A DNA stretch of 64,000 nucleotides from a virus (lineage: Duplodnaviria > Heunggongvirae > Uroviricota > Caudoviricetes). Each line of letters opens with the position of its first letter. The stretch's first letter is position 1. The DNA is taken from positions 10,207 to 74,206 of the IMG/VR virus record IMGVR_UViG_2877251553_000001; one strand, given 5' to 3'. The translations under genes and the position numbers were made by a program. Of this stretch, positions 7,731 to 8,544 are shown one piece after another. The notes under the pieces are model-generated. The model saw nothing but the letters and a program-made list of their open reading frames with translations. It was not told where the DNA came from and ran no database searches.

Positions 7731-8544
7731 TAGCGATAATTTTACTCATCATCCTTCACATCTGGCTCTGTAGACAGGGTGGTGATCACTTCTGGAGTGA
7801 ATCCAGATTAAACATCTCATTGCTGATGCTTGAAGTTGAGCATCTGGCGCGCGGTAAGGGGCTGCGTTGAAATAAGAGCCAGTCATTAAAAATACCTGGA
7901 TTTAGCCTCGCATTCGCGGGGCTTTTTATTGCCATTACAAAAGCCACTCCCTACAGAGTGGCTTTGATAATGGCTTATACCCTACACGGGATAACTTAAC
8001 TGATATCCCTTTTAACGGATAAAGGTATTCAAGCCTGACACATCATGCGCTGTATCGTCGCCGTATTCCCGTATTAACAGAGACCGTAGCCCGACGGGGA
8101 ACTCCTTCTGCGAGAGTGTGCGGGAATAATCAAAAACGATGCACACCGGGTTTTTACCGCGTTTATGGTTCGCGGGTTTGTCGCTCATGCTCGCCAGTCC
8201 TGTGCGGGGGGGAAGAAACAGGATACTCACACAGATTCTTGTGGGCACGATGCTATTCCTTTCTGGATTATCCCGATGCCATTCATGCAAGGCGCTGTAT
8301 CAGACGTTCGTCATGGCTGTCAGGCTGACGGGTCCTCCCGGTGGGGTGGCCTGCCACGGGGCGGGAGCGTCGCGGAAAAAGGCTAGTTTTTGAAATTTCA
8401 TTCGTCATCACCACTGCTGTAATTGATTGATATTACAGTATTTTTATTTTTGCAGTGTCGATTTTGATTGTTTTTTGTTCATCACTAACACCGTTTGCCT
8501 AAAGTTGTTCGCAAGATGCATGTTTAAAACATTCTGGAGCGGGT

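Follow-up and report, generated by a model that had tools for sequence, protein, structure and literature searches.

A probable lambda-type cos site upstream of the DUF1441 small terminase gene of an mEp460/Ayreon-like lambdoid prophage

The region between Rz and the terminase genes

The window, by which we mean the whole 64 kb stretch of DNA that was analysed, contains a lambdoid prophage of E. coli of the mEp460/Ayreon/cdtI type. Reading rightward, the genes of a DNA methyltransferase, a holin, a YdfR-like protein, a lysozyme and Rz precede a gap (7731-8544), which is followed by the genes of a DUF1441 small terminase, a gpA-family large terminase, a gpW-like protein and the portal (Table 1). 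The gap, which an earlier note on this DNA had put at about 800 bp and proposed as a candidate packaging region, measures 814 bp from the stop codon of Rz (7730) to the ATG of the small terminase gene (8545). Of 5426 complete E. coli genomes, 4351 have DNA that resembles the gap region; at least 80% of the region is present in 760. On the left border, an Rz1-type lipoprotein ORF lies inside Rz in the +1 frame (approximately 7483-7689), which is the usual arrangement of two-component spanins.

Table 1. Features of the gap and of its borders (positions in the window)
Feature	Position	Strand	Remarks
Rz i-spanin gene	7263-7730	+	Left border of the gap; Pfam Phage_lysis, E 8e-29; from the ORF list
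Hydrophobic candidate ORF, 50 codons	7718-7870	+	Overlaps the Rz stop; travels with the lysis module; not cos
Terminator-like hairpin 1 with T-run	7904-7930	+	3' of the lysis genes; 8 pairs (6 GC), then TTTTTATT
Very stable hairpin 2	7931-7974		19-nt arms; not cos
Widely shared lambdoid spacer	8024-8223		Holds a 58-aa minus-strand ORF (8188 to 8012)
cosQ heptamer GGGTCCT	8330-8336	+	Identical to lambda bp 48473-48479
cosN, predicted 12-nt 5' cohesive end GGGCGGGAGCGT	8359-8370	+	Homology, record ends, conservation
I2-like segment CGCGGAAAAAGGCTAGTTTTTGAAATTTCA	8371-8400	+	Between cosN and cosB; partly alignable to lambda CGCGGGTTTTCGCTATTTATGAAAATTT
R3-like candidate small-terminase binding repeat TTCGTCATCACCAC	8401-8414	+	Direct repeat with 8475-8489
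I1-like candidate IHF site TAATTGATTGATA	8420-8432	+	Exact match to YAANNNNTTGATW
R2-like repeat GTGTCGAT	8455-8462	- (inverted)	Inverted repeat with 8407-8417
R1-like repeat TTGTTCATCACTAAC	8475-8489	+	Direct repeat with 8401-8414
Small terminase gene, DUF1441 family	8545-9039	+	Presumed cosB reader; Pfam DUF1441, E 3e-41
Large terminase gene, gpA family	9039-11140	+	Pfam GpA_ATPase and GpA_nuclease

The base composition of the gap is very uneven. The GC content is 73% at 8320-8379 and peaks at 78% at 8315-8374, in agreement with the GC-rich segment that the earlier note had placed near 8310-8380. Only 0.006% of the 60-nt windows in the 64 kb reach 78%, and 8315-8374 is essentially the GC-richest 60-mer. 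To the right of this segment, the stretch 8381-8530 has a GC content of 33% and belongs to the lowest 1.8% of 150-nt windows.

The left 600 bp or so of the gap are not cos: they comprise the tail of the lysis module, the hairpins of terminator character and a spacer common to many lambdoid phages. What P22-like headful phages have in common with the window is limited to 7700-8023, cos being excluded; on this ground the 50-codon ORF is assigned, with the two hairpins, to the lysis module. The ORF has the coordinates and the hydrophobic character that the earlier note had described, and is one codon shorter than the 51 announced. Its product matches PHROG 11822 (unknown function) over its full length with an E-value of 9e-38, and is annotated by PGAP as WP_001139681.1. 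Among close homologs, the variable sites are distributed 4/4/7 over the three codon positions, showing no third-position bias, and one homolog contains a stop codon.

The two hairpins described near 7905-7970 are both real and lie at 7904-7923 and 7931-7974. Their association with packaging does not hold, as they are located in the stretch that is shared with P22-like headful phages. Hairpin 1 (-14.7 kcal/mol, z -3.0) is the only terminator-like match in a scan of 7200-9100; its GC-rich stem-loop is directly followed by a U-run, as is required of a Rho-independent terminator, and it is annotated as a terminator in Ayreon. It would be a rightward terminator, through which Q-modified late transcription would have to read. 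Hairpin 2 folds with -26.8 kcal/mol on the plus strand (z -7.2) and -30.1 kcal/mol on the minus strand (z -8.5); since the minus strand offers the better T-run, it may terminate transcription leftward or in both directions. Mosaic breakpoints recur at this hairpin as well, the homology starting at 7930-7932 in nine loci. An Rfam scan of 7200-9100 returned nothing near the gathering scores; the best matches, mir-458 and STnc560 (E 0.03-0.4), are explained by the hairpins.

The spacer that follows is found in many lambdoid phages. A search with 8024-8544 matched 452 phage records and, among the matches listed, most cover only 8024-8223, at 80-95% identity. The spacer precedes terminases of the Nu1, DUF1441 and HNH/P27 types, and a 108-nt piece of it is present in DLP12 of K-12 as unannotated intergenic DNA between ybcV and borD. 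The 59 protein clusters that contain homologs of its minus-strand ORF come exclusively from E. coli or Shigella; their lengths are inconsistent and they have no Pfam domain. We rejected this ORF (58 or 92 aa) as a gene, given that several close copies have premature stops or frameshifts and that it is interrupted in divergent ones. The statement that the gap contains no convincing ORF is thus upheld in that a coding-type substitution pattern is absent from both the 50-aa and the 58-aa ORFs; it has to be qualified in that the former is annotated by PGAP and the latter sporadically annotated.

Other candidates for a function of this part of the gap were considered. No convincing sigma-70 promoter for a leftward transcript was found by a scan and by inspection of the sequence. 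The window does not contain the sequence of sRNA-17, a small RNA of E. coli K1 that reportedly belongs to an mEp460-like prophage (PMC7719688). It is quite unlikely that the cassette of approximately 290 bp at 7931-8223 (the hairpin and the 200-nt segment) is a functional, moron-like leftward transcription unit inserted between the lysis and packaging modules. If it were, its product could be a small protein (about 58 aa) or an sRNA ending at the hairpin.

The predicted cos site and its conservation

The proposal that the gap is a packaging site survives for its right part, of which the GC-rich segment is the core, while 7731-8329 is unrelated to packaging. We consider it very probable that the stretch from 8330 to approximately 8490 is the lambda-type cos of this mEp460/Ayreon-like prophage. 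Sequence homology, the ends of deposited genomes and the comparative architecture all support this assignment, and they support a layout in which cosQ and cosN, at the positions given in Table 1, are followed by a cosB of about 8400-8490.

The sequence GGGTCCT-22 nt-ACG/GGGCGGGAGCGT/CGCGG (slashes indicate the predicted nicks) occurs at 8330-8375, as a single copy in the window. The more general motif GGGTCCT-N22-CG/GGGCGG....../CGCGG has one match in 64 kb versus zero expected from 100 shuffles. In lambda, cosQ is the signal that ends packaging. Its heptamer is retained in 83 of 84 close relatives, and the spacing between cosQ and the cohesive end is 22 nt, compared to 23 nt of different sequence in lambda. 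In many relatives from outside E. coli (Salmonella, Citrobacter and Pasteurellaceae loci), the position of cosQ is occupied by AGGTACT instead of GGGTCCT; according to the papers of the Feiss laboratory, natural variation of cosQ is not apparent among lambda-like phages.

The predicted cohesive end GGGCGGGAGCGT is identical to that of lambda, GGGCGGCGACCT, at 8 of 12 positions: bp 1-6 (GGGCGG) are the same and the mismatches are confined to bp 7, 8, 9 and 11. The CG pairs next to both predicted nicks are kept (...CACG/GGGCGGGAGCGT/CGCGG). [quoted passage not shown] The symmetric core of cosN extends over 8354-8375; its twofold symmetry is partial, with 12 of 22 positions in the window and 10 of 22 in lambda. 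The top strand is predicted to be nicked before 8359 and the bottom strand after 8370, so that the predicted left end lies 186 nt from the ATG of the small terminase gene (190 nt in lambda).

The close relatives display the same restriction as the comparison with lambda. Across the 84 of them, the 12-mer varies only at bp 7-12 (T12G, for example, in 12 loci), the exact 22-mer core CCACGGGGCGGGAGCGTCGCGG of the window is found in 62, and conservation is near-total from 8355 to the ATG, a few columns excepted. The distance between ACG and CGCGG is 12 in most relatives, and we note that it is 9 in mEp460_4F5, 10 in CP-1639, 11 in VT1-Sakai and 14 in Gifsy-2 of LT2. These odd distances could reflect natural variation of the overhang length, defects of the sites or errors in the assemblies.

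To the right of cosN, the I2-like segment is found in 56 of 57 loci with a DUF1441-type terminase and in none of 57 control segments. The R3-like repeat corresponds to bp 43-56 of the predicted left end, compared to bp 50-65 for R3 of lambda (PMC9026076); it is conserved among close relatives, which carry the CATCATCATCA block as its equivalent at the same position. The IHF consensus YAANNNNTTGATW has only three matches in the 64 kb. In its strict form, it occurs in the upstream regions of 14 of 57 related loci and in 0 of 57 controls, and the columns of the site that vary among close relatives are the NNNN positions. The R2 motif [AG]TG[TA][CT]GA[TA] is present in 49 of 57 related loci and the R1 motif TTC[AG][ACT]CA[TC] in 48, each against one of 57 controls, the controls being coding segments; these R-site motifs were derived from the same sequences in which they were then counted, so that the counts are supportive rather than independent.

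Taken by sequence, the repeats (whose motifs were defined post hoc) and the exact IHF consensus have the order and orientation that they have in lambda. The order R3-I1-R2(inverted)-R1 has been described for lambda, phi80, 21 and Gifsy-1 (PMC9026076). The 57 DUF1441-type loci come from Enterobacterales and Pasteurellaceae, among others, and the ordered series cosQ-I2-R3-R2-R1 is found in 48 of them. In the other nine, whose small terminases are the most divergent, cosQ, cosN and I2 are retained and the repeats differ, as is expected if cosB co-varies with the specificity of the small terminase.

The mosaic structure of related loci points to the same block. We compared 80 metagenomic or prophage loci, all of which encode a 100% identical small terminase. 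The similarity upstream of this gene starts at recurrent points: 7930 (the beginning of hairpin 2), about 8020-8046, about 8158-8167, 8326-8330 (at cosQ, in 17 loci) and 8355-8359 (at cosN, in four loci). From these recurrent starts it follows that cosQ-cosN-cosB is the smallest block that always travels with the terminase. The four loci in which homology starts at cosN (L017, L041, L052 and L061) are viral contigs, whose left side has another, more lambda-like spacer between cosQ and cosN. They suggest a past exchange at the cohesive-end site itself.

Deposited genome ends, terminases and other cos systems

Several deposited genomes are interrupted at, or near, the predicted cut. The GenBank records of cdtI (AB285204) and Tritos (OV696610) start with GGGCGGGAGCGTCGCGGAAAAAGGCTAG and end with ...GGGTCCT(22 nt)CCACG, which means that both were opened precisely at the predicted cosN cut. 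The Tritos record is a re-annotated prophage, so its start may simply copy the lambda convention. The record of mEp460_4F5, a virion-derived assembly, opens 5 nt to the left of the predicted end, 188 nt before its small terminase gene, and 3 nt of the 12-mer are missing from it. The Ayreon genome (MF807953) was assembled from virion DNA and its gaps were filled automatically. Its positions 2163-2314 are a chimeric filler of approximately 150 nt, located exactly between the equivalents of 8361 and 8371 of the window, which includes a piece of Ayreon's own small terminase gene and replaces cosN. A filler at this place is expected if no read crosses a physical end there. The authors of the Ayreon genome had only predicted that cos would be found somewhere in the 1 kb preceding the small terminase gene. 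At present, this gene is the point at which both the mEp460 and the Ayreon records are opened.

The small terminase encoded next to the site matches PHROG 141 ("terminase small subunit", E 7e-74). Its N-terminus is HTH-like, the best match among PDB profiles being a weak one to an HTH regulator (E 0.35). A BLASTP comparison with lambda Nu1 gave no significant similarity (E 20). Using hhalign, the N-terminal HTH region aligns collinearly with the winged HTH of Nu1, with a probability of only 22%. On both counts it was not classified as a Nu1-type small terminase. A single-sequence AlphaFold prediction had a mean pLDDT of 66 (43-66 in the N-terminal part), too poor for a comparison of folds.

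A 1-nt deletion in the G-run of GGCGAGGGGATGC (9585-9597) divides the large terminase gene into two ORFs (9039-9647 and 9632-11140) and is the single indel relative to an intact homolog of 2103 nt. The window has GGGG where 63 of 63 related loci have GGGGG, so that it alone, among 64 sequences, has lost a G. The missing G reflects either a genuine mutation that inactivates the gene or an error in sequencing the homopolymer. With its frameshifted large terminase, the prophage's own enzyme may not cut the site.

Compared to lambda cos, the site shares not only cosQ, the GGGCGG half of the cohesive end and the CG pairs at both nick positions, but also the succession of a GC-rich cosN and an AT-rich cosB, the IHF consensus between a direct and an inverted repeat, the distance of about 190 nt to the small terminase gene and the gpA-type large terminase that comes after. 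The R repeats, on the other hand, are of the TCATCAC/TCGACAC type, unlike those of lambda, the spacing between R2 and R1 is tighter, and the small terminase belongs to the DUF1441 family. In cdtI and Tritos, the sequence from cosQ through I2 is essentially identical to that of the window, including the exact 12-mer. Their small terminases are approximately 38-42% identical to that of the window and their cosB repeats are of the GGCGGCGGC and TTCACCTG type. Given these different repeats, the specificity of packaging initiation is presumably different.

The group of Gifsy-1, mEp213 and mEp043, studied by the Feiss laboratory and characterised by Gifsy-type heads, shares the DUF1441 small terminase (47-57% identity), the predicted layout cosQ-cosN-I2-R3-I1-R2-R1 and a variation of the cohesive end that is restricted to bp 7-12. 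In this group R1 abuts the ATG of the small terminase gene, which is 129 nt from the predicted end, so that the window has approximately 57 nt extra. At the equivalent place, mEp043 carries GGGCGGCGCGCT, a sequence given as the putative cos of mEp213 and credited to M. Feiss (PMC12315714). The "simple" cosB of N15 and the cos sites of PICIs are accompanied by lambda-like cosQ and cosN, as in the window (PMC4669245, PMC9026076). N15 possesses only one R site and lacks an IHF site, and the PICIs have no recognisable cosB, in contrast to the complex, three-repeat form predicted here. Considered together, the site appears to be an ordinary member of the lambda-like cos family, paired with a Gifsy-type small terminase.

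Packaging at the site: proposed mechanism, alternatives and meaning

By analogy with lambda, we infer the nick positions, the length and polarity of the overhang, and that the small terminase and IHF would bind at the site. The DUF1441 small terminase would bind R3, the inverted R2 and R1, and IHF would bend the DNA at the I1-like site, bringing R3 and R2 together. The bound complex would anchor the gpA-family large terminase on cosN, where staggered nicks around 8359-8370 would leave the 12-nt 5' overhang GGGCGGGAGCGT. After cutting, the DNA would be translocated rightward into the prohead, and packaging would stop at the next cos, read via cosQ, cosN and I2.

Cos could be present and cut otherwise than with the lambda-like 12-nt stagger, giving a shorter or shifted end, for example of 9-11 nt or starting from CCACG. 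The distances of 9, 10, 11 and 14 between the conserved flanks in mEp460_4F5, CP-1639, VT1-Sakai and Gifsy-2 of LT2 would be accounted for by such a cut, and so would the opening of the mEp460_4F5 record at CCACG. Moreover, the paper on Cr-LKS3, whose DUF1441-type small terminase is 40% identical to that of the window, reports 5'-extended, lambda-like cohesive ends of 9 nt; that these ends are 5'-extended and lambda-like speaks at the same time for a lambda-type cos in the window. However, the exact 22-mer core is found in the window and in most of its close relatives, and the 12-mer is exactly where the records of cdtI and Tritos open. The deviation of mEp460_4F5 could have arisen as an artefact when a physical end was assembled, and we take the CP-1639 and Gifsy-2 sites to come from prophages that may be defective. 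We regard a different stagger as improbable. A reading with somewhat more to recommend it, possible though on the whole unlikely, is that this cos is intact and idle: a relic that, because of the frameshifted large terminase, would be usable only via the terminase of a co-resident phage with the same small-terminase specificity. The deletion, which falls in the ATPase domain, is unique to the window. Against this reading, the loss of a single base in a homopolymer is a common sequencing error, and the cos subsites are all intact and identical to those of plaque-forming or inducible relatives, such as Ayreon.

It is extremely improbable that the GC-rich segment encodes a protein instead of being a DNA site, even though CDSs (gp59 of mEp460 and a "putative late gene regulator" of Ayreon) are annotated across the equivalent of 8139-8393. 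The gp59 frame is not conserved, which led us to reject the plus-strand 84-aa ORF as a gene: the window is frameshifted relative to most relatives, and there are seven indel positions and in-frame stops. The gp59-type frame has no match in Pfam or PHROG, the CDS of Ayreon passes through the chimeric assembly filler, and an ORF of this type would be severed in virion DNA. Headful packaging from a pac site, with a coincidental likeness to cos, is just as hard to credit. The only point noted in its favor is that the left part of the gap (7700-8023) is common to P22-like headful phages; this shared segment ends at 8023 and leaves cos out. The large terminase is of the gpA family, contrary to a headful reading, and the cos motif, of which the window has a single copy, falls together with the ends of deposited genomes. 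We conclude that a lambda-type cos remains the preferred reading of the right part of the gap.

Placing cosN at 8359-8370 would give the correct zero point for this family of prophages, which has little import beyond annotation. It exposes, in the Ayreon record, the chimeric junction and a "late gene regulator" CDS that is spurious, and the ORFs that are annotated across the cos site are not genes. As regards the prophage of the window, the frameshift in its large terminase gene suggests that it may be unable to package itself. Last, the comparison provides candidate small-terminase and IHF sites for a DUF1441-type terminase, a kind of terminase for which we found no published cosB specificity.
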